This document shows positions 12,392 to 28,960 of a stretch of DNA of 64,000 bases, piece after piece. A program made the position numbers and the translations under genes. The DNA comes from an uncultured Chthonomonadaceae bacterium (GTDB lineage Bacteria; Armatimonadota; Chthonomonadetes; Chthonomonadales; Chthonomonadaceae), in NCBI GenBank assembly GCA_963835065.1, contig CAWIEK010000019.1, forward strand, positions 34,917 to 98,916, read 5' to 3'. The notes below the pieces were generated by a model. That model saw only the letters and a program-made list of their open reading frames with translations, was not told the origin of the DNA and searched no databases. The stretch's first letter is position 1, and each line of letters opens with the position of its first letter.

Positions 12392-12860
12392 AGTTTGGGT
12401 CTTCTTTCCGTATCGGAGGGTGATTGTTGATAAATTAATGCAGGTCGAATTTGTTGAAAATGCCGCGCAGGAAGCGGGCAAGTGTCTTCATTATACCGCG
12501 AACTGGCGTTCACGCTAAAAATAAGACACCTGGAAGCAAAGAAAAATGCGCTCCGTCGAGCAAAACGGGAACATTATTTTCACCGCTTACGTCATGCTCC
12601 TACCCGATTCCAGTAATAAACGAGATAATTCCCGTTTGCGGCGCAGATAAGCAGGAAAATGCCCGATGATTGAGGAATATACCCCCTGACAACATATCGC
12701 CCTTGACGCAATTGTAAATTAACCCTGTTCCATCGCGCAATAAAGCGGCGCAATCAGGTATTCTTTGCAGAATATCCTGCTTTCTTCCGAAATTCCTTGT
12801 GAAACAAAGCAAGCCCATTTGAAACGCGCATTGAACAGAACCCTGTGGAGGAACGAACCT

Positions 12861-13739
12861 TTGAAAACCAACATGCAACGTAACCTGATGTGTGCCTTTA
12901 CCGGCATCCTTAGCCTGGCCGTCGTCGGAACCCTGACCACGCCCGCCAACGCGCAGGCCAAAATGAAGAAGCAGAAGAGCGCTCCGATGAAAAAAGACAG
13001 CATGATGAAGAGCGACAACATGCAGGGCAACATGATGGACAAGAACACCAGCGCCGAAGAGCGCCGGATGCAGACGCTGGGCGAAAAGTTCGGCGACTAC
13101 AAGTTTGTGGATCCCGCGCCCCTGAACTATCCGATGGCCGCGCCCGCAACTCTGGACGTCTACCATTTCGAGACTTACAGGGGTGACCATATCATGCCCG
13201 GCTCCGCTCATGATGCCCGCATGGACAAGATGATGATGACGGACAAGAACATGATGAAGGGCGATAAGATGATGGGGCATGGCATGACGCGCCAGGCGTA
13301 TCGTGACGATCCCTTCACCGCCGACCCCGCGCCCGTCAACTATCCGCTTGCCGCGCCCGCAACCCTGGATGTCTATACCTTCACCGACTACTCGATGAAC
13401 AAAATCACGCCCGCCAACACCCTCGACACCCGGATGGACAAGCAGATGATGAAGGACACCATGGTTCCCACGAGCCGCGTGTTCAATCGCCAGTCCTACT
13501 ACGATGACCCGTTCACCGCCGATCCCGCGCCGGTCAATTACCCGCTCGCCGCGCCGGCCAGTCTGGACCTGTATCACTTCCGCACCTACCAGATGAATGA
13601 ACTCCGCTCAGGCTCTGTGACGGATACGCGCATGGATAAGCAGATGATGCGCGACAACATGACGCCCGGCAGCGGCAAAATGGACAGCACCATGAAGTCG
13701 GGCGGCACCACAAAGAAGGCCGGCAAGACGAAAAAGTAG
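12861..13739 (+). CDS. Secreted Met-rich protein with three ~60-aa internal repeats
   Basis: Signal peptide ending ANA-Q; MKKDSMMK segments; three copies of DPAP(L/V)NYP(M/L)AAPA(T/S)LD(V/L)Y..RMDK.MM; GGAGG RBS before TTG. Confidence 0.8.
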   Translation: MKTNMQRNLMCAFTGILSLAVVGTLTTPANAQAKMKKQKSAPMKKDSMMKSDNMQGNMMDKNTSAEERRMQTLGEKFGDYKFVDPAPLNYPMAAPATLDVYHFETYRGDHIMPGSAHDARMDKMMMTDKNMMKGDKMMGHGMTRQAYRDDPFTADPAPVNYPLAAPATLDVYTFTDYSMNKITPANTLDTRMDKQMMKDTMVPTSRVFNRQSYYDDPFTADPAPVNYPLAAPASLDLYHFRTYQMNELRSGSVTDTRMDKQMMRDNMTPGSGKMDSTMKSGGTTKKAGKTKK

Positions 13740-13820
13740 GTACTACCGGAAAGTTTGCCGTTTTGCTGAAATTTTGCTTGCAGAAACCGGCTTGCCTGTG
13801 GTAACATAATAACAATCATT

Positions 13821-13931
13821 CTGGTTGACGAACGCGAGGGACTGCAAACGCAGTTCGGCGCTTTTGTAGGCCAGCATCCTTACGGGACTGCCGTTTCGGC
13901 AAGACTCGGCAGCGATGCTGGCCTTTTGTTT
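13821..13931 (+). promoter_or_regulatory. Candidate attenuator/riboswitch leader with overlapping antiterminator and terminator
   Basis: AGGCCAGCATC (13868-13878) pairs with GATGCTGGCCT (13914-13924), followed by a T-run. CTGGTTGACGAA (13821) can alternatively pair with TTTGTAGGCCAG. Confidence 0.55.
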
Positions 13932-13961
13932 GCTTTGGATGCCCGTTTTGGATGACACCCG

Positions 13962-14336
13962 ATGAGCCGACCGACAAAGGGAACGCTGGAAGCCGAAGTC
14001 GCCAATGCCGTCACGCGATTCCATCGGGAACAGCAGGGACGCGGGCCGACAGATGTACGCGCGCACCTTCTTGGCGATTTAATTCTGGTGCGCTGCGCCG
14101 GGATTTTCACGCCGACAGAAGCGCGGCTCGCGGTCACGGACGAGGGCCGCAGGCTCATCAAAAGCGCGCGGCAGGAGTTGCGCAGTATCAACCATCTGGA
14201 AATCGAAGGCGTGGTTGCCACCCTAGCCAATTGCCCGGTATTGCGCAGTTATTGCGACATCAACACCGACGCCGGGGAACAGATGGAAGTGTACGTGCTG
14301 GAAGCCGACGTAGAAAAACGCTTGCTGCGCCAGTAA
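13962..14336 (+). CDS. DUF2294 / MpsC-family protein
   Basis: KGTLEAEVANA..F.REQQGRGP..V..GIFTPTE..L..EGRRLIKSARQEL..DINTDAGE. Confidence 0.85.
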   Translation: MSRPTKGTLEAEVANAVTRFHREQQGRGPTDVRAHLLGDLILVRCAGIFTPTEARLAVTDEGRRLIKSARQELRSINHLEIEGVVATLANCPVLRSYCDINTDAGEQMEVYVLEADVEKRLLRQ

Positions 14337-14607
14337 CAAGGCGCGTTCGTAGGGGCATGATTTATCGCGCCCGCGCCTGCTGCGTTCATCGCGCCCGCGC
14401 CTGCTGCGTCCGTATAACAATTTCATACAAACCATGCGGTTGCCATGCAGAAGGGTAAATTTCACGCTTACCCGTCCAAGCGGAGGCCGAAGTTCGCAGA
14501 CTTAGGAACGTTTTCGCGTTCCGAATGTCTGCGCGACTTCGGCCTCTTTTGCGTTTTACGCCTACTCTTGCCCAATCATGTGAGGCGAAAAGGAGCCATG
14601 AAGTACC

Positions 14608-14691
14608 ATGCAGGACATTCTTTACACAGTCGTGGTTGTCGTTTTCTTTGCGGCCAGCGCCGCTTATGTGCGCGGCTGCGACAAACTTTGA
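14608..14691 (+). CDS. Small hydrophobic peptide preceding kdpF (27 aa)
   Basis: Hand translation MQDILYTVVVVVFFAASAAYVRGCDKL*; resembles peptides commonly seen upstream of kdpF. Confidence 0.75.
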   Translation: MQDILYTVVVVVFFAASAAYVRGCDKL

Positions 14692-14703
14692 GGAGAAACG
14701 ATC

Positions 14704-14790
14704 ATGTTTGATTATCTTTGGACGGGCGGGGTCGCCCTTCTCCTCCTCGTCTATCTGCTTTACGCGCTGCTGAAGCCGGAGCGCTTTTAG
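14704..14790 (+). CDS. kdpF: K+-transporting ATPase subunit F
   Basis: Hand translation MFDYLWTGGVALLLLVYLLYALLKPERF*; GAGGAG RBS. Confidence 0.95.
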   Translation: MFDYLWTGGVALLLLVYLLYALLKPERF

Positions 14791-14792
14791 GG

Positions 14793-14870
14793 AGTTGATA
14801 GTTGATGGTTGATAGTTGATAGTCCGAAACTTCTGTATCTCTATCAACTATCAACTATCAACTATCAACT
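14793..14870. repeat. Heptamer-armed palindrome (GTTGATA)n ... (TATCAAC)n
   Basis: Directly visible between kdpF and kdpA. Confidence 0.9.
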
Positions 14871-14882
14871 AAGGGGACTCTT

Positions 14883-16748
14883 ATGACACCCAATGGCGTC
14901 ATCCAAATTCTGTTGTACTTCGCGCTGATTATGCTGGTCACAAAACCGCTCGGCGCGTACATGGTCAAGGTGTTTGAAGGCGAACGAACGCTGCTCTCGC
15001 CCCTCTTTCGCCCCATCGAGAAGCTGTTTTACGGCATGTTCGGGGTGCGCGAAGAAGAGGATATGAAGTGGACGACGTATGCCTTCGCCATGCTGATGTT
15101 CAGTGTGGTCGGCCTGCTGTTTACCTATGTCCTGCTGCGTTTTCAGGGGCATTTGCCCTTCAACCCTAAAGGTTTCAGCGGCAAGGACATGACGCCTGAC
15201 CTGGCGTTCAACACGGCGGGGTCGTTCACGACCAACACCAACTGGCAAGCGTATGTGCCGGAAACAACCATCAGTTATTTTTCCAACATGGTGTCGCTTG
15301 CCATTCACAACTGGATGTCGGCGGCGACGGGCATGGCGATTGCCATTGCGCTTGTGCGTGGCTTTGCGCGGCGTTCCGCGCAGGGCATCGGCAACTTCTG
15401 GGTGGACATGATGCGCAGTACGCTGTACATCCTGCTGCCCCTGAGTTTTATTGCGGCTTTGCTGTTCGTGTGGCAGGGCGTGCCGCAGAATTTCAGCGCG
15501 TACACCGATGTGAAGACGCTGGAAGGCGCGGCGCAGGCGATTGCGCAGGGACCGGTCGCTTCGCAGGAAGCGATTAAGATGCTTGGCACGAACGGCGGCG
15601 GATTCTTCAACGCCAACAGCGCGCACCCGTTTGAGAACCCGACGCCGCTTGCCAACCTGTTCCAAATGTTCCTGATTTTCTGCATCCCCGCCGGCCTGAC
15701 GTACACATTCGGCAAGATGGTGGGCAACACCAAACAGGGATGGGCGCTGTTCGCAGCCATGTCCGCCATGTTCTTTACGGGCGTGTTCGTATGCTACGGA
15801 GCCGAATCGAAAGGCGTTCCTACAGCCGTAGAGGCTGCGCATATTCTGACGGTGGATACGGGCACACAGCCCGGCGGCAACATGGAGGGCAAGGAAACCC
15901 GCTTCGGAATCGCCAACTCCGCCCTGTTCGCAACCATTACGACGGACGCAAGCTGTGGCGCGGTCAACAGTATGCACGACAGCTACACGCCGCTTGGCGG
16001 CATGGTTCCCCTGTTCAACATTATGACGGGCGAGGTGATTTTTGGCGGCGTGGGCGCGGGGCTATACGGCATGTTGATGTACGCCGTAATCGCGGTCTTC
16101 ATTGCCGGCCTGATGGTCGGGCGGACGCCGGAGTATCTGGGCAAGAAGATCGAGCAGTATGAGGTGAAAATGGCGATGCTGGCCGTTCTCGTTCTGGCTG
16201 CCGACATCCTGTGCTTTACGGCCATTTCCACCAACCTGAATATCGCGCCGGGAGCCACATCGCAGACGTTTACTGACAAGCAGACAGCCGACGAAGACAA
16301 GCTGACGCAGCAATTCCCGTCCGCGCAATGGAACCACGTCAACAACAGCAGTCCGAGCAACTACTACGGCGCGACGTACAACAACCAGAACAACAGCGGG
16401 GCGCACGGCTTCTCGGAAATCCTGTACGCCTACACGTCGGCAACCGGCAACAACGGTTCGGCCTTCGCGGGCATCACAGCCAACACGCCGTACTACAACC
16501 TGACGATTGGCATCGCCCTGCTCATCGGGCGCTTTATGATGATTATTCCGCTCCTGGCGATGGCGGGCAGCCTGGCAAAGAAGAAACTGGTGCCGGCATC
16601 GGCGGGCACGTTCCCGACAGATAGCGCGACGTTTACCGTCCTGCTCGTCGGCGTGATCCTTATCGTGGGCGCCCTGACCTTCTTCCCGGCTCTGGCGCTA
16701 GGTCCAATCGTGGAACACTTCCAGATGCTTGGCGGAAAGACGTTTTGA
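14883..16748 (+). CDS. kdpA: K+-transporting ATPase subunit A
   Basis: [37 protein letters not shown]. Confidence 0.98.
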
Positions 16749-16751
16749 GGA

Positions 16752-16860
16752 GGTAGACGGTAGACGGTAGACGGTAGACAGTAGGAACTCCCTCCACTTA
16801 CTGTTTAGTTTAACATAAACGCGAGGAATGTCCTACCGTCTACCGTCTACCTCCCTACCC
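16752..16860. repeat. Heptamer-armed palindrome (GGTAGAC)n ... (GTCTACC)n
   Basis: Between kdpA and kdpB. Confidence 0.85.
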
Positions 16861-16871
16861 GGAGATTACCA

Positions 16872-18998
16872 ATGGCTACTCAAATGCAGACGCCGACCCC
16901 GATTGTAGGCGGGACGCCCGGCGGTTTCCATAAACCCAAAAATGCCCCGAAGTCTTTGTTTGACCCGGCGATTATGAAGCGCGCGGCGGGGGATGCTTTC
17001 AAAAAACTCGATCCGCGACTGGTGGCGAAGAACCCGGTCATGTTTGTGGTCGAAGTCGGCAGCGTGATTACCACCTACTACTGGATTAAGGGATTGGTCA
17101 CGCACGACGGCACGGCGCTGTTTGTCGGGCAGGTATCGCTGTGGCTGTGGTTCACCGTCCTGTTCGCCAACTTCGCGGAAGCGATGGCGGAAGGCCGGGG
17201 TAAGGCGCAGGCCGACACGCTGCGCAAAGCCAAAACCGACGCGGTAGCGCGGCGATTGGCGGGCGGCAATCTGAAGGGCGAAGAAGAGCGCGTAGCCGGT
17301 ACGCAGTTGCGCAAGGGTGATCTTGTCGTCTGCGAAGTCAACGACGTGATCCCCGGCGACGGCGAAGTGATAGACGGCATTGCCAGCGTGGACGAATCGG
17401 CGATTACGGGAGAATCCGCGCCGGTTATCCGCGAATCGGGCGGCGACCGGAGCGCGGTCACGGGCGGAACCAAAGTGCTTTCGGATCGCATCGTGATTCG
17501 CATCACTTCCAATCCCGGCGAAACGTTTATTGACCGCATGATCGCGCTTGTCGAGGGCGCGCAGCGGCAGAAGACGCCGAATGAAATCGCGCTTTCCATT
17601 CTGCTGTCCGGCCTGACGATTGTGTTTTTGCTGGCAACCGTCACGCTCCAGCCGTATGCCATTTACAGCGTTCGCTCGGCGGGCAGCGGTTCGCCGCCCA
17701 CGATTACGGTTTTGATTTCGCTGCTTGTATGCTTGATACCGACCACGATTGGCGGGCTGCTGTCGGCCATCGGTATCGCGGGCATGGATCGCGTCATGCA
17801 GCACAACGTTCTTGCCATGTCGGGCAAAGCCGTAGAAGCGGCGGGTGACGTGAACACCCTGCTGCTGGACAAAACCGGAACCATTACATTAGGAAACCGG
17901 CAGGCGTCGGAATTCATTCCGCTTCCGGGCGTCAACATCAACGAACTGGCGGACGCGGCGCAGCTCTCTTCCCTTGCGGACGAAACGCCGGAAGGCCGCA
18001 GCATCGTCGTCCTGGCGAAAGACAAATACGGCCTGCGCGAACGGCAACTGAGCGCAAATGAAGCCGAATTCGTGCCCTTCACGGCGCAAACCCGCATGTC
18101 GGGCGTGAACATGAACGGAACGCAGGTGCGCAAGGGCGCAGCGGCAAGCGTGGCATCATGGGTGCAGGAGCAGGGTGGGAGCGTTCCCGCCGAACTCGAC
18201 GAGATCGTGACCCGTATCTCCTCGCTTGGCGGTACGCCGCTGACCGTCGCCGTCAACAACAAGCCGCTTGGCGTTATCTACCTGAAAGACATTGTCAAGG
18301 GCGGGATGCGGGAACGGTTCGATCAGATGCGGGCGATGGGCATCAAAACCGTGATGATTACGGGCGACAACCCGCTGACGGCGAAAGCCATTGCCGAAGA
18401 AGCGGGCGTAGACGATTTTCTCGCGCAGGCTACGCCCGAAAACAAGATGGACTTGATTAAAAAGGAGCAGCAGGGCGGCAAACTGGTCGCCATGACGGGC
18501 GACGGCACGAACGACGCCCCCGCGCTGGCGCAGGCCGATGTCGGCGTCGCCATGAACACGGGTACGCAGGCCGCGAAAGAAGCGGGCAACATGGTGGACT
18601 TGGACTCCAACCCCACCAAACTGATTGAAATTGTGGAAATCGGCAAGCAGTTGCTCATGACGCGGGGCGCGCTGACCACGTTCAGCATCGCAAACGATGT
18701 GGCGAAATACTTTGCCATCATCCCGGCCATGTTCGTTGTCACGTACCCGGCCCTGAACCGGCTCAACATCATGCACCTGAGCAACCCGAATTCGGCAGTG
18801 CTGTCGGCGGTTATTTTCAACGCCCTGATTATCATCGCGCTGATTCCGCTGGCTCTGCGCGGAATCGCGTACAAGCCGATGGGCGCGGCGCAAGTCCTGC
18901 GCCGCAACCTGATGCTCTACGGCGTCGGCGGCCTGATTATCCCGTTCCCCGGTATCTGGATTATTGATCGCTTGCTTGTGCTGCTGCATTTAGCGTAG
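16872..18998 (+). CDS. kdpB: K+-transporting ATPase subunit B (P-type ATPase)
   Basis: [21 protein letters not shown]. Confidence 0.99.
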
Positions 18999-19009
18999 AG
19001 GAGTTCTCC

Positions 19010-19666
19010 ATGTTCCAACAATTACGCGCCGCTGTGGTCAGCGTGCTTGTCATTACGGTATTGACGGGGTTGATTTTCCCCTTTGTGATTACGGGTATTG
19101 CCAGAGTGATTTTTCCCCGGCAGGCGAACGGCAGCCTGATCGAGCAGGATGGGAAAGTGGTCGGTTCGGCTTTAATCGGGCAGAACTTCGCCGCGCCCGG
19201 TTACTTTCATCCGCGCCCTTCGGCGGCAGGCAACGGCTACGATGCGGCCAACTCCAGCGGCACGAACCTGGGGCCGACGAGCGACAAACTGATTAACGGC
19301 ATCCACAAGAAGACGGCGGACGGCAAGGACGATCCGGGCAACTTCGACGGTATCAAAGACCTGGCCGACGCTTACCGCAAGGAAAACAATCTGCCTGCCA
19401 CGCAGGACTTGCCTTCCGACGCCGTGACCCGCTCCGCCAGCGGCCTGGACCCGGAAATCAGCCCCGCCAATGCCGCCCTGCAAATCGGGCGCGTCGCCAA
19501 ACAACGCGGCCTGGGCGAAGATCAGGTGAAGAAACTGGTGGACGACAATACGGCGGGACGGCAACTCGGCATTTTGGGCGAACCCCGCGTCAACGTCCTG
19601 AAACTGAATCTCGCGGTGGATCAGGCCGCGCCCGGCAAAGCCGGCGTAACGCCGCCGAGTCCGTAA
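19010..19666 (+). CDS. kdpC: K+-transporting ATPase subunit C
   Basis: QANGSLI, YFHPRPSA, SASGLDPEIS, EPRVNVL.LN. Confidence 0.98.
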   Translation: MFQQLRAAVVSVLVITVLTGLIFPFVITGIARVIFPRQANGSLIEQDGKVVGSALIGQNFAAPGYFHPRPSAAGNGYDAANSSGTNLGPTSDKLINGIHKKTADGKDDPGNFDGIKDLADAYRKENNLPATQDLPSDAVTRSASGLDPEISPANAALQIGRVAKQRGLGEDQVKKLVDDNTAGRQLGILGEPRVNVLKLNLAVDQAAPGKAGVTPPSP

Positions 19667-21434: not shown

Positions 21435-22978
21435 ATGAACCTGAACGTTTTGCCGTTTTTCTGGCTGATTTTGATTGCGTTTATTGTCGCGCTGGCGGCG
21501 CGGCGCGTGAAGGTTCCTTACGCCCTCGCCCTGGTGGTAACGGGGCTGGTGTTGGGAGCCGCGCATCTGCTGCCGCATACGCACCTGGAACCGTCTCTGC
21601 TGTTTACCGTGTTTCTGCCGCCCCTCCTGTTCGAGTCGGCCATGCACCTGCGCGCGGAAGATTTGAAGCAAAACTGGAAGCCCATCAGCATCTATACGCT
21701 GGCGGGAACTATCGCTTCCACCTTTATTGTGGGCGGGCTGACGGCCTGGGGATTGCACATTCCGTTTGCAGCCGGGTGCGTGTTCGGCGCGTTGATTTCG
21801 ACAACCGACCCGATTTCGGTAATCGCCATCTTCAAGCGATTGGGCGCGGGCAAGCGGCTGACGCTGATTATGGAAGCGGAAAGCCTGTTTAATAACGATA
21901 CGGCTGTGGTGCTGTTTACGGTGATGCTGGGCGCGATGGCAGGCGGTAAAATTTCGCTGGCGCAGGGTATCGGGCAGTTTGTGCAGCTTGTAGCCGGGGG
22001 CGCGTTGTTGGGAAGCGCCATTGGCCTGCTGGCTTCCCGCGTCCATAACGAATTGAACGATCATCTGGTAGAGATCACGCTGACAACCGTTGTCGCGTTT
22101 GGATCCTATCTGTGCGCCGAAGCGCTGCATGTTTCGGGGGTAATGGCGGTTGTGGTGGCAGGCATTGTGCTTGGAAATGTGGGGATGCAGACGGCTATGA
22201 CGCCGGGTACGCGCCTGGCCGTGACCGCGTTTTGGGAATACGCCGGGTTTGTCGTGAATTCCATTGTGTTCCTGCTGGTCGGTATCGAAGTCGGGTTTGT
22301 GGATTGGCGGCATAAGATCGGGCTGGCATTGGGCGCAGTGGCAATCGTGCTTATTGGACGAGCCGCGATATACCCGATTTCGCTGCTTGTGAACCGCGTC
22401 AAGGGCGATATTCCCTTCGCCTGGCAGCATGTGCTGTTTTGGGGCGGGCTGCGCGGCGCGCTTTCGATGGCATTGGTTTTGGGACTGGACAGACGATTTT
22501 CCGCAACGGGAAACGCTGATTGCGGCGACATTCGGAGTAGTGCTTGTTTTCGCTGCTGGTGCAGGGCTTGACGGTCGGGCCGCTGATGCAGAAACTGGGG
22601 CTGTGTAACGCGCAAAGCAAGGAACCCAAAGACCATCGGCGGCTGGCGAACGAACTGGTGGCGTGTCAGGCGGCGATTGCGGAACTGGAGCATTTGCGCG
22701 CGGCGGAAGCCCATGCGAACTGGTCTATCGAACTGCTGATGCGCGACTACCGTACCCGGCTGACCCTATTGGAACAGGCGCTGGAAGAAGCGCAGCCCGG
22801 CCACAAAGTTCTGCACCGCAAACAGGCCGCTCGCGCCCGTCAACTCGCCCTGCAAGCCGAAAAAAGTTCCTTACAGGAAGCGGAGCGGCAAGGCTGGCTC
22901 GACGAAGACGACTGGCGCGAACTGTCCGCCCGCATTGACTCGGAACTGCTGGCGTTACATGCGGCGGAGAAGGAGTAG
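21435..22978 (+). CDS. CPA1-family Na+(K+)/H+ antiporter (frameshifts near 22500-22545)
   Basis: LPPLLFE, TDPISV, AESLFNN, GGLRGALS, LLVQGLT; helical C-terminal tail. Confidence 0.9.
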
Positions 22979-23068: not shown

Positions 23069-24903
23069 ATGCACAACCTGAAAACGCAACTATGGGTAAG
23101 TCACCTGCTGCTCATATTGGTGCTGGCAGTGGTGATGGCGAGCGCGATCTTTAATTTTGTCCGCCTGGGGCGCTCTATTGACCGCATCCTGAAAGACAAT
23201 TACAAGAGCGTGATTGCCGCGCAGGATATGAAGGAAGCGCTGGAGCGGCAGGACAGCGCGGCCACGTTTTTTCTCGCGGGGCAGACGCAGAAAGCGCAGG
23301 ACGCAGTATCAGGCGAACTGGACGCGGTTCCGGGACGCTTACCAGACCGAAGCGCACAACATTACGGAGGCGGGCGAACAGGAGATTGCCGACGACATTG
23401 GACGCAACTTTGTGGATTATCGGCAGGAAGTGGAGAAGCTGCTGTACGCTCGCCCGCCTATGCCGCCCGAACAGGCGCGGGCGTTTTATTTTGGAACATT
23501 GGAGCCGGCTTTCGCGCACTTGAAGCAGCGGGCGCAGGACGTTCTTGACCTGAACCAGAAGGCGATTGTCTATGCGGATGAACAGGCCAAAGCGGAAGCG
23601 CGGCGTGTTTCCCTGGTCAGTTTCGGGGTCACGGCAGGCGCGTTCGTTCTGCTTCTTCTGCTTGTGCCCTGGACGATCCGGGCTTCGCTGACTCCGCTGC
23701 GGTCCCTGGCGCGGCAGGCGGAAGAAATCGGCGTCGGGCATCTGAACCAACGTATCGAATTGAACCGGACGGATGAGTTGGGCGCATTGGCGGCTTCGTT
23801 CAACAGCATGGCCGAGAAACTGCGGGCGGCGCGGCAAGTGGAGGAGGAGCGGCTGCACCTGGCCGAGCGCATGTCGGACGCCGCGCTGGAAAGCCTGTAC
23901 GATCCCGTCATTATCACGAACGGCGCGGGGCGCGTCGCGCATTTGAACCCGGCTGCGGAGGGCTTGTTCGGTTCGGCATCACAGGCGAAATCCCGTCCTA
24001 TCGCGCAGGTGGTGGGAGACAAAGCGATTGTGGACGCCGTAACGCGCGCCATTCAGCAGGAGCGGGTTTCCGCGTCGGAAGATGAAGCCGGGTTTGTCAC
24101 GCGGCGCGATGGGAGAAGTGGAGCGCACGTATCGGCTTCGCGCCAGTCCCATGCGGGATGAAGACGGCAGCGTGTTGGGAGCCGTTACGGTTCTGGAAGA
24201 CATCACGCACCTGCGCGAACTGGATCGCTTGAAAACGGAATTTATCGGCGTGGCTTCCCACGAACTGCGGACGCCCGTCACCAGCCTGCTCCTATCGGTG
24301 CAATTGCTTCAGGAGGGCGCAGTGGGGGAACTCACGCCCGATCAGAAGGAAGTGATCGAAGCGCAGCGCGAGGATTTGGAACGTTTAGAACGCATGATGC
24401 GCGACCTGCTCGACATTACGCGGCTGGAAGCGGGCGTGACGCCGCCGCGTTTTGCCCTTGTCGCGCCAAACGAACTGGCCGATTCGGCAGTGCAGGCGGT
24501 AGAAGCGCCGGCCCATGCCAAAGGGGTGTGGTTAGTCCGCGATTGGGCGGATAATTTGCCTGCTGTCCGCGCAGACCGTAATCAGATTTCGCGCGTTCTG
24601 GTCAACCTCCTCAACAACGCGGTTCGCCACACGCCTTCCGGGGGCAACGTCACCGTGAGCGTTCGGCAGGAGGGCGACAAAGTTAGATTTCAGGTGGCGG
24701 ACACGGGAACGGGTATTCCCGCCGAGTACCTGCCGCACATTTTCGAGCGTTTTGTGCAGGTTCCGGGCGCAACACGGGGCGGCGCGGGATTGGGATTGTC
24801 CATTGCGCAAACGATTTTGAAAGCGCACGGCAGCGAAATCAAGGCGGCAAGCCTGCCGGGCAAGGGCGCGACGTTTACGTTCGCGCTGCCGGTAGGGGGA
24901 TAG
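23069..24903 (+). CDS. Membrane sensor histidine kinase (helical sensor-HAMP-PAS-HisKA-HATPase), frameshifted near 23300 and 24100
   Basis: ILKDNYKS sensor start, HAMP DELG.LA.SFN.M, ASHELRTP, NLLNNA, DTGTGI, GAGLGLSI. Confidence 0.9.
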
Positions 24904-25035: not shown

Positions 25036-25782
25036 ATGGCGCGAATTCTGGTAGTAGACGATGAAAATAATATCCGCATGATGGTTCGGCTGGCCTTGCA
25101 GCACGTCGGGCATCAGGTGGAAACGGCGGCGGACGGCACAGAAGGCTTGGAAAAGTTCGGCAACGGCAGCAATTACGATCTGGTATTGCTGGATCAGCGT
25201 ATGCCGGGATTGGAAGGGCTGGATGTTCTCAAGCAGATGCGCTATCACCATCCGCAGGCGAAAATCATCATGGCAACCGCGTTCGGCACGATTGACCTGG
25301 CCGTAGACGCGATGAAGGCGGGCGCGACGGATTTTTTGCGCAAGCCCTTTACGGCGGAAACCCTGCGCGGAGCCGTACAATCCACCCTACAGGAAGTTCC
25401 GAATACCGAACACCGAACACCGAACACCCGGACGGGCGTTACATTCGGCTCGACTACGATCAACGGCTTTCGGATTGAGTTTCAGGCCGGTTCGGGCGAA
25501 CATGTCGGCGGCGGGTTTCGGCAGGTGTTTACGGTGCGCAGTCCGGGCGGCGAAAACAAAATCTGTACCGTTGTTCTGCCCTCGTATATCACGGAATTGG
25601 TAAAAGCGCATGCCGACTGCGAGCAGTTTCCCGGCAATGACCGCTTCTGGCAGGCATTGTGCGAGGAAGCGTTGGCGAATTACTTGTGGCAAAACGCGGA
25701 ACTGCCCGCCGGGGCGCAAATGCGAATTGAGGAATTATCAACAGGGCTGCGCCGTTTCGTGGATACCGTGATGGCGGCGTAG
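25036..25782 (+). CDS. Response regulator: receiver domain plus unrecognised C-terminal domain
   Basis: ILVVDDE, LLDQRMP, KPF; no OmpR winged-helix or AAA+ domain recognisable. Confidence 0.85.
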   Translation: MARILVVDDENNIRMMVRLALQHVGHQVETAADGTEGLEKFGNGSNYDLVLLDQRMPGLEGLDVLKQMRYHHPQAKIIMATAFGTIDLAVDAMKAGATDFLRKPFTAETLRGAVQSTLQEVPNTEHRTPNTRTGVTFGSTTINGFRIEFQAGSGEHVGGGFRQVFTVRSPGGENKICTVVLPSYITELVKAHADCEQFPGNDRFWQALCEEALANYLWQNAELPAGAQMRIEELSTGLRRFVDTVMAA

Positions 25783-25856: not shown

Positions 25857-27809
25857 ATGGCATTTTTAGACCGACTTTTGGGCAGGCGGCTGGCGACCCA
25901 TGAAGAAGATGAGCAAAAAGTCGGCGTGTTCGCGGGCATTCCCATGCTGGGACTGGACGCGCTTTCCTCATCCGCGTATGGCCCCGAAGCCGCGCTGACG
26001 ATCTTGATTCCATTGGGAGCGCTCGGTCTGGCGTATATCGGCCCGATCATCGGCGTGATTCTGGCACTGCTGATTATCCTGTATTTTTCGTACCGGCAGA
26101 CGATTGCCGCGTATCCCAATGGCGGCGGCTCGTACACCGTTGCGAAGGAAAACCTGGGAACGCGGGCAGGACTTTTGGCGGCGGCGGCGCTGCTGCTGGA
26201 TTATGTGATGAATGTGGCGGTGGGCATTTCGGCGGGCATGGGCGCGCTGATTTCCGCCGTGCCCGGATTGCATCGGTATCTGCTGCCCTTGTGTTTGGTC
26301 ACGCTGGTCTTTGTCGCGTTTATTAATCTGCGCGGAGTTCGAGAATCGGGACTGGCGTTCGCCCTTCCCACCTATTTGTTTGTCGGTACGCTTACGGTTG
26401 TGCTTGTACTGGGAGTGGGCAAGATTTTGCTGAGTGGCGGGCATCCCGTACCGGTTGTCGCGCCTCCCGCCCTGCCTGCCGGAACGGGAGCCGTCACGCT
26501 GTGGCTGTTGCTGCGCGCGTTTGCGAGTGGCTGTACGGCGATGACAGGCGTGGAAGCCGTCAGCAACGGCGTCACGGCCTTTGCCAAACCCGCCGTTGTC
26601 AACGCGCAGCGAACCTTAACGGCGATTGTCGTGATTTTGGGCGTTTTGCTTGCGGGTATCGCCATTCTTGCCCGCGCATACCATATCAGCGCGATTGACC
26701 CGGACAGCCCCGCGTATGACAGCATCGTTTCGCAATTGGTGGCGGCGGTTGCGGGGCGGGGCGTGTTTTACTATTTCACCATCGGCAGCGTTCTGGCCGT
26801 GCTTGCGCTTTCCGCCAACACCAGTTTTGCCGACTTTCCGCGCCTGTGCCGGCTGGTCGCGCAGGACGATTTTCTCCCCCACGCCTTCGCCAACCGGGGG
26901 CGGCGGCTTGTATACTCCTACGGCATCGCCATTCTGACCGTTTCCGCCGCCATTCTGATGATCGCATTCGGCGGCATCACGGATCGGCTGATTCCTCTGT
27001 TTGCTATCGGCGCGTTTCTGGCGTTTGCGCTGTCGCAAGCCGGCATGGTGGTGCATTGGAAGCGCGTGGGAGGGCCGCGGGCGCAAACGTCCCTGTTCGT
27101 GAACGGCCTGGGCTGCGTGGTTACGGTGATTGCGCTTGTCATCGTTATCATTGCTAAATTTGTGGAAGGCGCGTGGGTCACGCTGCTGCTGATACCCGCG
27201 TTCCTCATCGTTTTTGACCGCGTGAAGGCGCATTACGTGCATGTGGCGCAGGAAATCCATTGCCCGCGCCCCCTGAATTTGGAACGCTTGCAGCCGCCGG
27301 TTGTCGTGGTTCCCATCAAGGCGTGGAATACGATTGCCGAACGCGCGCTGCAATTCGCGCTGCAACTGTCGCCGGACGTGGTTGCCGTTCACATCAGCGC
27401 GGACGAAGGCGCGGCGTATGGCCTGCGCATGCAATGGGCGCAGTACGTGGAAGAGCCAATTGCGCAGGCGGGATTGCCGCAGCCGCGCCTGCTCCTGCTT
27501 TTGTCGCCTTATCGCCGCCTGTTCACGCCCCTGCTTAACTTCATCAATCAATTAAAAGAGGAATACCCCTCGCGGCTGATCGCCGTCATTATCCCGGAGC
27601 TCGTGGAAAAGCGCTGGTATCAATATCTGCTGCACAATCAGCGCGCGACGGGATTGAAAGCCGCGCTCCTGCTGCGCGGCGACAGCCGGGTCGTGGTGAT
27701 CAACGTGCCCTGGTATTTAGGAGAAAGCGCGGAAAATCCTATTAGCGACGATGACTCAAAACCGCCGTTAAGGTTTGTCGAAGCGGAGAATAGCCTGGGA
27801 GGTGGATAA
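25857..27809 (+). CDS. APC-family permease, KimA/YdaO-like K+ transporter
   Basis: LDALSSSAYGPE, YPNGGGSY, GCTAMTGVEAVSNG, ANTSFADFPRL, SPYR. Confidence 0.9.
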   Translation: MAFLDRLLGRRLATHEEDEQKVGVFAGIPMLGLDALSSSAYGPEAALTILIPLGALGLAYIGPIIGVILALLIILYFSYRQTIAAYPNGGGSYTVAKENLGTRAGLLAAAALLLDYVMNVAVGISAGMGALISAVPGLHRYLLPLCLVTLVFVAFINLRGVRESGLAFALPTYLFVGTLTVVLVLGVGKILLSGGHPVPVVAPPALPAGTGAVTLWLLLRAFASGCTAMTGVEAVSNGVTAFAKPAVVNAQRTLTAIVVILGVLLAGIAILARAYHISAIDPDSPAYDSIVSQLVAAVAGRGVFYYFTIGSVLAVLALSANTSFADFPRLCRLVAQDDFLPHAFANRGRRLVYSYGIAILTVSAAILMIAFGGITDRLIPLFAIGAFLAFALSQAGMVVHWKRVGGPRAQTSLFVNGLGCVVTVIALVIVIIAKFVEGAWVTLLLIPAFLIVFDRVKAHYVHVAQEIHCPRPLNLERLQPPVVVVPIKAWNTIAERALQFALQLSPDVVAVHISADEGAAYGLRMQWAQYVEEPIAQAGLPQPRLLLLLSPYRRLFTPLLNFINQLKEEYPSRLIAVIIPELVEKRWYQYLLHNQRATGLKAALLLRGDSRVVVINVPWYLGESAENPISDDDSKPPLRFVEAENSLGGG

Positions 27810-28960
27810 TGCCAACGGATGCCGACATGCCGCGCCGCCCCACGCCCGAAGAACTGCTGGAGCGGGTGCAGCGCGAGGAAAAACAGCAGAAACGGGGACG
27901 CCTGAAAGTGTTCCTGGGCTTTGCGGCAGGCGTGGGCAAATCCTACGAAATGCTTAACGAGGCCAACCGGCGGCGACAGCGCGGGCAGGATGTGGTTATC
28001 GGGTACATCGAAACCCACAGGCGCAAGGGAACCGAGGAGCAGCTTGGCGACCTGGAAACCGTTCCGCGCAAGCAAATCGAGTACCGGGGAACGGTTCTGG
28101 AAGAAATGGATACGGAAGCCATTCTCGCCCGCCATCCGCAATGGGCGGTTGTGGACGAACTGGCCCATGCCAACGTGCCCGGTTCGGCTCGCGCCAAGCG
28201 CTGGCAGGACGTGGAGCTTCTGCTGGACGCGGGCATCCATGTGCTGACGGCAATGAACGTGCAGCATCTGGAAAGCCTCAACGATACAGTTTACGACATT
28301 ACCGGAATCCGCGTCCGCGAAACCGTTCCCGACCGTATCATCCGGGACGCAGACGAAGTGAAGATGGTGGACATTACGCCCCGTTCGCTGATTCACCGTT
28401 TGGAGCGCGGCGACATTTACGCGCCGGATAAGGTACAGCAGTCGCTGCAAAACTGGTTCCGGGAAGGCAATCTGAACGCCCTGCGCGAAATCGCCCTGCG
28501 GGAAGTGGCGCACGAGGTGGACGAGGACGTGGCCGCGTACCGCAAGGAGCGCAACGTCCGGGAAACGTGGGCCACGCATGACCGCGTGATGGTGTGCATC
28601 AGCCCCGACCAATCTTCGCTGCGCCTGTTGCGGCGGGGCTGGCGCATCGCGGGGCGGCTTCACGCCGAGATCGTCGCCGTGTACGTGGAAAATAAGCCGA
28701 CAACGGAAGAGCAGAAACAGATATTACGGGACGACTTTGCGCTCGCGGACCGCCTGAAAGTGCCGGTTGTCACGCTGCATGGCGATGTGGCGAACGAGAT
28801 CATCCGCTACGTCCGCGAAAACCAGATCACGCAAATCGTCATCGGCCATTCGGATCGAACGCGCTGGCAGGAGTTCGTCAAGGGTTCCATCATCAACCGC
28901 CTCACCTACGCCCTGCGCACCATAGACATTCTGATTGTCGCCTCGGCGGAGGAAGGTTAG
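27809..28960 (+). CDS. kdpD: Stand-alone KdpD N-terminal sensor domain plus USP domain
   Basis: RGRLKVFLGFAAGVGKSY, VDELAHAN, NVQHLESLND, GNLNALRE and a USP tail; no TM segments or kinase domain. Confidence 0.88.
   Translation: MPTDADMPRRPTPEELLERVQREEKQQKRGRLKVFLGFAAGVGKSYEMLNEANRRRQRGQDVVIGYIETHRRKGTEEQLGDLETVPRKQIEYRGTVLEEMDTEAILARHPQWAVVDELAHANVPGSARAKRWQDVELLLDAGIHVLTAMNVQHLESLNDTVYDITGIRVRETVPDRIIRDADEVKMVDITPRSLIHRLERGDIYAPDKVQQSLQNWFREGNLNALREIALREVAHEVDEDVAAYRKERNVRETWATHDRVMVCISPDQSSLRLLRRGWRIAGRLHAEIVAVYVENKPTTEEQKQILRDDFALADRLKVPVVTLHGDVANEIIRYVRENQITQIVIGHSDRTRWQEFVKGSIINRLTYALRTIDILIVASAEEG

Follow-up and report, generated by a model that had tools for sequence, protein, structure and literature searches.

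The hairpin and overlapping predicted terminator flagged at positions 13821-13931 of the window (the whole stretch of DNA that was analyzed, 64,000 nucleotides from an uncultured Chthonomonadaceae bacterium) are real and, judging by the alignments, the hairpin represents a real, uncatalogued family of putative regulatory RNA. The layout in the window is promoter-switch-mpsC-switch-kdp. The reading that we find probable is that MpsC, the DUF2294 protein encoded between the two switches, acts on the twin hairpins by protein-dependent antitermination, in place of KdpE. Among 2990 species with a Kdp pump, both KdpD and KdpE are reported in only 46%, and a kdp c-di-AMP riboswitch in 12 (PMC6488665). 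For kdp control beyond these two systems, the 55-nt RNA and the 124-aa protein provide a concrete candidate.

Leader I: Hairpin, Terminator, and Candidate Promoter before mpsC

Leader I opens with CTGG at 13821. Its antiterminator hairpin (A-U core type; 13821-13874, forward strand) is supported by folding, by covariation in 23 sequences and by the covariance model R2 (56.8 bits). It rises from a basal helix that contains tandem U-G pairs and a G.A mismatch, through a 9-nt middle helix and a 2x2 AG/GG loop, to a variable top stem-loop. The predicted intrinsic terminator I (13868-13931, forward strand) has arms at 13868-13878 and 13914-13924 and the U tract TTTTGTTT (13924-13931), and the ATG of mpsC lies 30 nt on, at 13962. 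The preliminary description had claimed two mutually exclusive pairings with a common GGCCAG, an inner hairpin inside the antiterminator, and a terminator with a U tract about 30 nt before the start codon. The shared motif was confirmed at 13869-13874, the inner hairpin was located at 13840-13855, and the end of the U tract at 13931 agrees with the third point.

Folding energies are -28.3 kcal/mol (z -3.3) for the 5' hairpin and -35.5 kcal/mol (z -5.0) for terminator I (13868-13924), with 0/200 shuffles as good in both cases. The terminator state is 8.8 kcal/mol more stable than the state with the basal antiterminator pairs forced, so the computed default for leader I is termination, which would make it an ON switch requiring a stabilizing factor. 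A simple terminator scan, restricted to loops of 3-8 nt, returned one partial hairpin here against 2.0 expected by chance.

A candidate sigma70-type promoter was read by eye at 13778-13807 (forward strand), with a -35 element TTGCAG at 13778-13783, an 18-nt spacer and an extended -10 element TG-n-TAACAT at 13799-13807, which predicts a transcription start at about 13813-13815. This by-eye copy (TTGCAG, 18 nt, TAACAT with TG) fails a strict sigma70 pattern. The strict pattern is matched upstream of the hairpin in 11 of the 18 type I leaders of relatives, with a spacing of 17-18 nt; the distance from the promoter end to the conserved core is 12-20 nt in 10/18 leaders and 43 nt in one. The position of these promoters ahead of the hairpin is in keeping with the leader reading of the preliminary description. 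Directly upstream (12765-13739) lies the gene of a Met/Asp-rich, secreted-looking protein with three repeats of ~50 aa and no Pfam match.

Leader II: A Second Copy between mpsC and kdpF

The switch occurs a second time at 14437-14557, again with a terminator of its own; this copy is absent from the preliminary description. The antiterminator hairpin of leader II (C-G core type; 14437-14489, forward strand) has the geometry of leader I and scores 50.1 bits with model R2. It is overlapped by the predicted intrinsic terminator II (14483-14557, forward strand; outer arms 14483-14492 and 14537-14546, U tract 14547-14557), which adjoins the kdp genes directly on their 5' side and reaches -48.4 kcal/mol (z -7.8). 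Here, the terminator is favored over the antiterminator state by 15.3 kcal/mol, and the hairpin folded in isolation did no better than shuffles (z -0.26), so leader II would need a stabilizer even more than leader I does.

Terminators favored by 8.8 and 15.3 kcal/mol, together with a leader II that folds alone at shuffle level, are also what would be seen if the terminators were constitutive dampers, or if the sense were the opposite one, with MpsC promoting termination or limiting its own level, and kdp induction were set elsewhere. We regard this as very improbable, since a constitutive terminator would not keep a competing 5' hairpin with compensatory changes, and the conserved hairpin can only antagonize the terminator. 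A 22-nt direct repeat was also observed behind mpsC (14362-14410), probably a dispersed genome repeat.

Genes of the kdp Island

A 27-codon hydrophobic ORF (14608-14691, forward strand) was identified before kdpF from its translation, with similar ORFs seen by eye in relatives; it has no match in Pfam and NCBIfam, ends in CDKL and looks conserved, and a third small ORF is present there in some relatives. Next come kdpF (14704-14790, forward strand; TIGR02115, 35.9 bits, above its cut-off) and kdpA, kdpB and kdpC (14883-19666, forward strand; Pfam KdpA, E1-E2 ATPase and KdpC), which likely encode the regulated high-affinity K+ pump. Ahead of kdpA (14791-14880), 7-nt units form an inverted array, probably of dispersed genome repeats. 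Past kdpC, the gene order is porin, Na+/H+ exchanger, kinase, response regulator, permease, and KdpD-N/Usp protein.

The HAMP-PAS histidine kinase (23069-24903, forward strand) occupies three overlapping frames here, with a frame change against the relative L111, where it is intact as a single 559-aa ORF. The Na+/H+ exchanger (21435-22978) is likewise split over overlapping frames, as assembly indels or decay would produce. The response regulator (25036-25782, forward strand) matches only the receiver in Pfam and lacks an OmpR-type DNA-binding domain. This regulator, whose C-terminal domain of ~115 aa is uncharacterized, has 184 listed homologues, was modeled with a pLDDT of 92, and is duplicated in some islands; a fold search with the C-terminal domain gave no clear match, the best being a DUF1488 protein at Z 5.7. 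The island continues with an APC-family permease (PF13520), which we take to be KimA-like, and a stand-alone KdpD N-terminal/Usp protein (PF02702 and PF00582), together spanning 25857-28960 (forward strand), where a match to NF038185 stayed below its cut-off.

The Hairpin Forms a Covarying Family

The type I leader lies ahead of mpsC in 18 of the 23 loci of relatives, ~110-170 nt from the start (one of the 23 offered only 11 nt of upstream sequence), and a type II leader lies behind mpsC in 33/38 loci, each overlapped by a terminator-like stem. Two-sided changes were seen in 15/22 pairs of the type I leaders (23 copies) and in 15/19 pairs of the type II leaders (31 copies). For type I, the covariation score was 0.372 versus 0.232 for the shuffled alignments (0/500 as high), slid partners reached at most 0.122, and RNAalifold independently gave the same fold. 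Covariation among homologous leaders, on which the leader reading hinged, is thus present. Left out of A2 were L028, which duplicates L002, and L034, whose match is doubtful; left out of A4 were L028 and L036.

Types I and II align in register as one unbranched hairpin, and 18/21 pairs show two-sided change in the joint set of 53 copies. At one core position, 28 copies have a C-G pair and 23 an A-U pair; the G.A mismatch is kept in 51/53, the 2x2 loop with initial AG in 46/53, and a spacing of 9/9 nt between mismatch and loop in 45/53; the top stem-loop is 14-37 nt long and carries almost no sequence information. The joint model R2 found leader II of the window and three copies on another contig, C60, all of which were missed by model R1, built from type I only. 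A hand-written descriptor recovered one of the five copies of this genome and nhmmer four, with nothing additional.

With R2, at least five leader copies were detected in this genome (150 of 1488 candidates scored), where mpsC is single. The three on C60 of this genome, G000 (L069-L071; 18857-18921, 30263-30330, and 55303-55370), each overlap a terminator, and they precede the gene of a DUF1003 membrane protein, one gene cluster in which we recognize by eye putative kinase, phosphatase and vWA genes, and a frameshifted, orphan second kdpA. Leaders are also found apart from mpsC in relatives: in G011 and G025 the leader heads kdpA although mpsC sits on a separate contig, and in G094 it heads a permease gene, 2 kb behind mpsC, the kdp island of that genome (L145) having KdpE and no leader. 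Two loci look like remnants. L052 (G034, contig C72) holds a leader and the first 25 mpsC codons fused to the end of the permease gene, the island being deleted, and in L045 (G023, contig C4) the leader is duplicated and comes with a few codons of mpsC. In Acetoanaerobium noterae, a species from outside the phylum, mpsC is followed by a look-alike hairpin and terminator that precede an MFS gene; R2 gives this hairpin only 10 bits, so the homology there is by eye. Finally, a pattern search of metagenomes returned 13 stretches, of which four lie between mpsC and kdpA; in two, a terminator precedes a start that resembles a permease (read in one). The other seven, having no terminator U tract, were taken as chance matches.

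No Rfam family reached its gathering score anywhere in the window. At relaxed thresholds, only two irrelevant matches were obtained in 13700-14700 (E up to 10) and two in 20 related loci (E up to 1), so that the flagged hairpin is matched by no family even at E up to 10. The mismatch to the c-di-AMP riboswitch, noted in the preliminary description, was upheld: RF00379 (ydaO) has no match in the window or in the genome (150 of 191 candidates scored), and two control genomes were positive. The literature searched, outside of which lay subscription papers and RNA-screen motif tables, held no description of the leader RNA or of MpsC as a regulator.

The earlier choice between an undescribed riboswitch and a protein-dependent attenuator can be narrowed. 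The leader does covary and is unmatched in Rfam, and the evidence favors the protein option over the riboswitch. The hairpin could be an aptamer whose ligand, be it Na+, some other ion or a nucleotide, would switch on the genes directly, mpsC being a mere regulated passenger, and if it binds an ion it would represent a new riboswitch class. Such a role would suit the strictly conserved non-canonical core, the presence in one genome (G008) of a type I leader and terminator without an MpsC match, the diadenylate cyclase domain encoded in the present genome, and, for Na+, the ON polarity. The GGUUG start is also common to Na+ (DUF1646) riboswitch constructs, which are likewise ON switches on ion-transport genes (PMC9337991). 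However, we consider this unlikely: the fold is simple and matches nothing in Rfam, the leader is tied to MpsC, there is no second conserved stem, UCAAG occurs in only 2/53 copies, and the ON polarity is wrong for sensing K+ or c-di-AMP ahead of a K+ pump (PMC6488665).

MpsC as a Candidate Antiterminator

The gene mpsC (13962-14336, forward strand) encodes a DUF2294/YbcI-like protein of 124 aa that matches PF10057 at E 1.3e-30 (106.1 bits, gathering cut-off 23), and this family alone covers the protein, which we propose to be an RNA-binding antiterminator. Both the DUF2294 identity of the ORF and its position before kdp, as first described, hold. A search of 41 related genomes gave MpsC in 23, and mpsC is followed by kdpA in 30/38 loci, by the kinase of the island in three, by a permease gene in one, by other genes in two, and by no sequence in two (some genomes are counted twice).

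An AlphaFold model of MpsC reached a pLDDT of 94.6. The basic residues K6, R19, R22, R27, R33, R44, K67 and R70 are kept in at least 70% of 84 homologues. Speaking against RNA binding, seven acidic positions are conserved as well, and the net charge of the query is -1. Foldseek with the model returned nothing at E <= 0.001, and a PDB search with the sequence nothing below E 0.004, its best matches being designed proteins. By VIA-align, the best match had a Z of 7.0 (rmsd 3.4, 86 aligned), and a row for RbfA, at Z 5.5, stood among unrelated rows. An Atlas search returned MpsC clusters only.

In four kdp islands that have no leader, MpsC is of full length but has only 6-7 of the 18 conserved residues left, and all four copies have R27, R44, K67 and R70 replaced. 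This loss is expected if these residues serve an RNA that is now gone, and a ligand-only switch would not predict it. Three of the four islands are readable far enough, and all three hold KdpE. The degenerate genes (L104-L107, in G142, G134, G150, and G100) lie directly before kdpF without a leader and have on their 5' side TTTAT/TTTAC-rich repeats, which, we assume, resemble the KdpE box. Weighing against this view, three aligned copies of a distant subfamily keep 14-18 of the 18 residues and no leader was found by R2; this subfamily may act on a diverged target or do something else.

A receiver-MpsC fusion (P0201) was found once among 23 longer homologues scanned, and it suits MpsC as an output domain. 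An MpsC-KdpD fusion (P0131) was also noted and may be a frameshift artifact. A search for longer fusions, with 7998 candidates scored, gave one match, under a fungal-assembly name, which was rejected as a probable gene-calling artifact.

As to the orphan relatives of mpsC, deletion of mpsC in S. aureus is reported to give no phenotype (PMC6689103). In a 2026 preprint on the MpsAB-like system of B. subtilis, a term search gave no occurrence of mpsC, ybcI, leader, or riboswitch (10.64898/2026.09.08.750065). A 158-nt RNA of B. subtilis, ncr181, has been placed between adaB and ndhF (PMC2965217).

Distribution of the Leader and of KdpE

The close homologues with named records are mostly from Armatimonadota, probably also the phylum of the window. 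Across 141 genomes of this phylum (37 RNA candidates scored per genome), the leader was detected in at least 23, MpsC in 34, and KdpA in 48. MpsC and KdpA are both present in 21 of the 23 leader-positive genomes, the exceptions being G008 and G113 (weak match, E 0.006). Thirteen of the 34 MpsC-positive genomes have no leader match: eight hold the distinct subfamily, four the degenerate copies before kdpA, and the remaining one a weak match with a stop. In the eight genomes of the distinct subfamily, where mpsC mostly lies beside metabolic genes, no leader was found nearby, nor genome-wide in the four tested. True copies score 29-61 bits; in an unfiltered scan of 24 regions upstream of kdpA, taken from genomes without an MpsC match (22) or with the distant subfamily only (2), no score exceeded 12.7 bits.

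The DNA-binding winged helix of KdpE is found in 0/20 kdp islands with a leader and an intact MpsC, and in 20/22 leaderless islands. Because MpsC or leader status served to select the islands, the variable under test is KdpE. This mutual exclusion fits the early suggestion that the leader stands in for KdpE. On a KdpB tree of 41 rows (L149 was left out, its KdpB not being recovered whole), the leader/KdpE label needs only two changes, so that co-inheritance of one island accounts for much of the co-occurrence. The contrast would essentially reflect one island lineage with one or two reversals rather than 42 independent cases. One OmpR-type domain, with 42% to the KdpE query, is encoded elsewhere in this genome and is a possible remote regulator. 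According to one description, the short KdpD/Usp form is a serine kinase that acts post-translationally and is typical of species lacking KdpE (PMC11018627); a role as transcriptional sensor is therefore not required of it.

The C-terminal domain of the island's response regulator has a distribution of the same kind, being found in 19/20 leader islands, 0/22 leaderless islands, and 29 genomes overall, including 20 of the 23 leader-positive ones. The regulator occupies the place of KdpE beside the kinase, and its phosphorylated form might read the RNA via this domain in an ANTAR-like manner, with MpsC as an accessory or inhibitor. We see little chance of this. Nine genomes with the domain have no leader match, seven of these also lacking MpsC, the conserved charges of the domain are mostly acidic, and in A. 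noterae, whose look-alike hairpin and terminator lie behind mpsC, the query used here did not find the domain.

Proposed Mechanism and Significance

In the antitermination mechanism that we favor, binding of MpsC to the hairpin would let transcription continue into mpsC and the kdp genes, replacing KdpE. MpsC, perhaps as a dimer, would grip both small internal loops, which are spaced by 9 nt, and this grip would keep GGCC out of the terminator. Read-through at leader I would raise MpsC itself, giving positive feedback, and leader II and the three remote copies would open K+-uptake and stress genes. The trigger may be low K+ or osmotic stress, which is the least certain step. The signal is probably relayed by the HAMP-PAS kinase and the regulator, or by a small molecule binding MpsC, and here the scheme is weakest.

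A broader proposal, to which we give slightly less than even weight, is that DUF2294/MpsC may be an unrecognized family of RNA-binding antiterminators and, in this phylum, the end point of a pathway in which a kinase, a regulator without a DNA-binding domain and an RNA switch replace KdpE. If true, antitermination by MpsC would be a third way of controlling kdp transcription, after KdpDE and the riboswitch for c-di-AMP, and it would assign a function to the orphan genes mpsC/ybcI in Staphylococcus and Bacillus. A small ON switch built from protein and RNA would, in addition, be a compact part for synthetic biology.

Comparison with Known Leader Systems

KdpDE control has the same target operon, and the island here also holds a histidine kinase and a receiver protein (PMC11018627), but the OmpR-type DNA-binding domain is present in 0/20 leader islands and the KdpD/Usp protein is of the short form. 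In Bacillus thuringiensis, kdpFABC is preceded by a c-di-AMP riboswitch, in which c-di-AMP promotes termination (PMC6488665). As described there, this terminator-based kdpFABC leader occurs, like ours, in genomes that lack KdpE and have only the N-terminal form of KdpD, and is exclusive with KdpDE. In contrast, the present RNA is a single hairpin of ~55 nt against a model of 134 positions, and is predicted to be a default-off ON switch rather than one turned off by its ligand.

The Na+ (DUF1646) riboswitch, to judge from the constructs described (PMC9337991), resembles the leader in having GGUUG at the base of a long stem, in being an ON switch with a competing terminator, and in the ion-transport genes downstream. 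It differs in that UCAAG is rare in the leader copies (2/53), there is no separate P2 with a conserved G-rich loop, the terminator here disrupts the basal helix and not P2, and cmscan gives no match.

Signal-controlled RNA-binding proteins that act on leader terminators include ANTAR proteins, PyrR and HutP. ANTAR domains are receiver-fused outputs, and pyrR is also flanked by attenuators. No such Pfam domain is found in MpsC or in the regulator, and we know of no twin-hairpin layout in these systems.

The layout found here is that of the BglG/SacY/LicT/GlcT-RAT systems. In the bgl operon of E. coli, the bglG gene has an intrinsic terminator on either side, and a binding hairpin overlaps each of them (PMC9678765); leader II with its own terminator behind mpsC means that mpsC is flanked in the same way. 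RAT hairpins, whose two internal loops are read by protein dimers, are mutually exclusive with an intrinsic terminator (PMC1635312), as is the leader hairpin, which also has two internal loops. The leader hairpin differs from RAT in being longer, with its internal loops 9 nt apart, and MpsC differs from the BglG family in its predicted targets, which are K+-uptake genes and not the sugar PTS, and in that binding here is predicted. Having neither a protein with a CAT/PRD match in Pfam nor a match in Rfam, the system falls outside the BglG/RAT family but, by analogy, would work as that family does.
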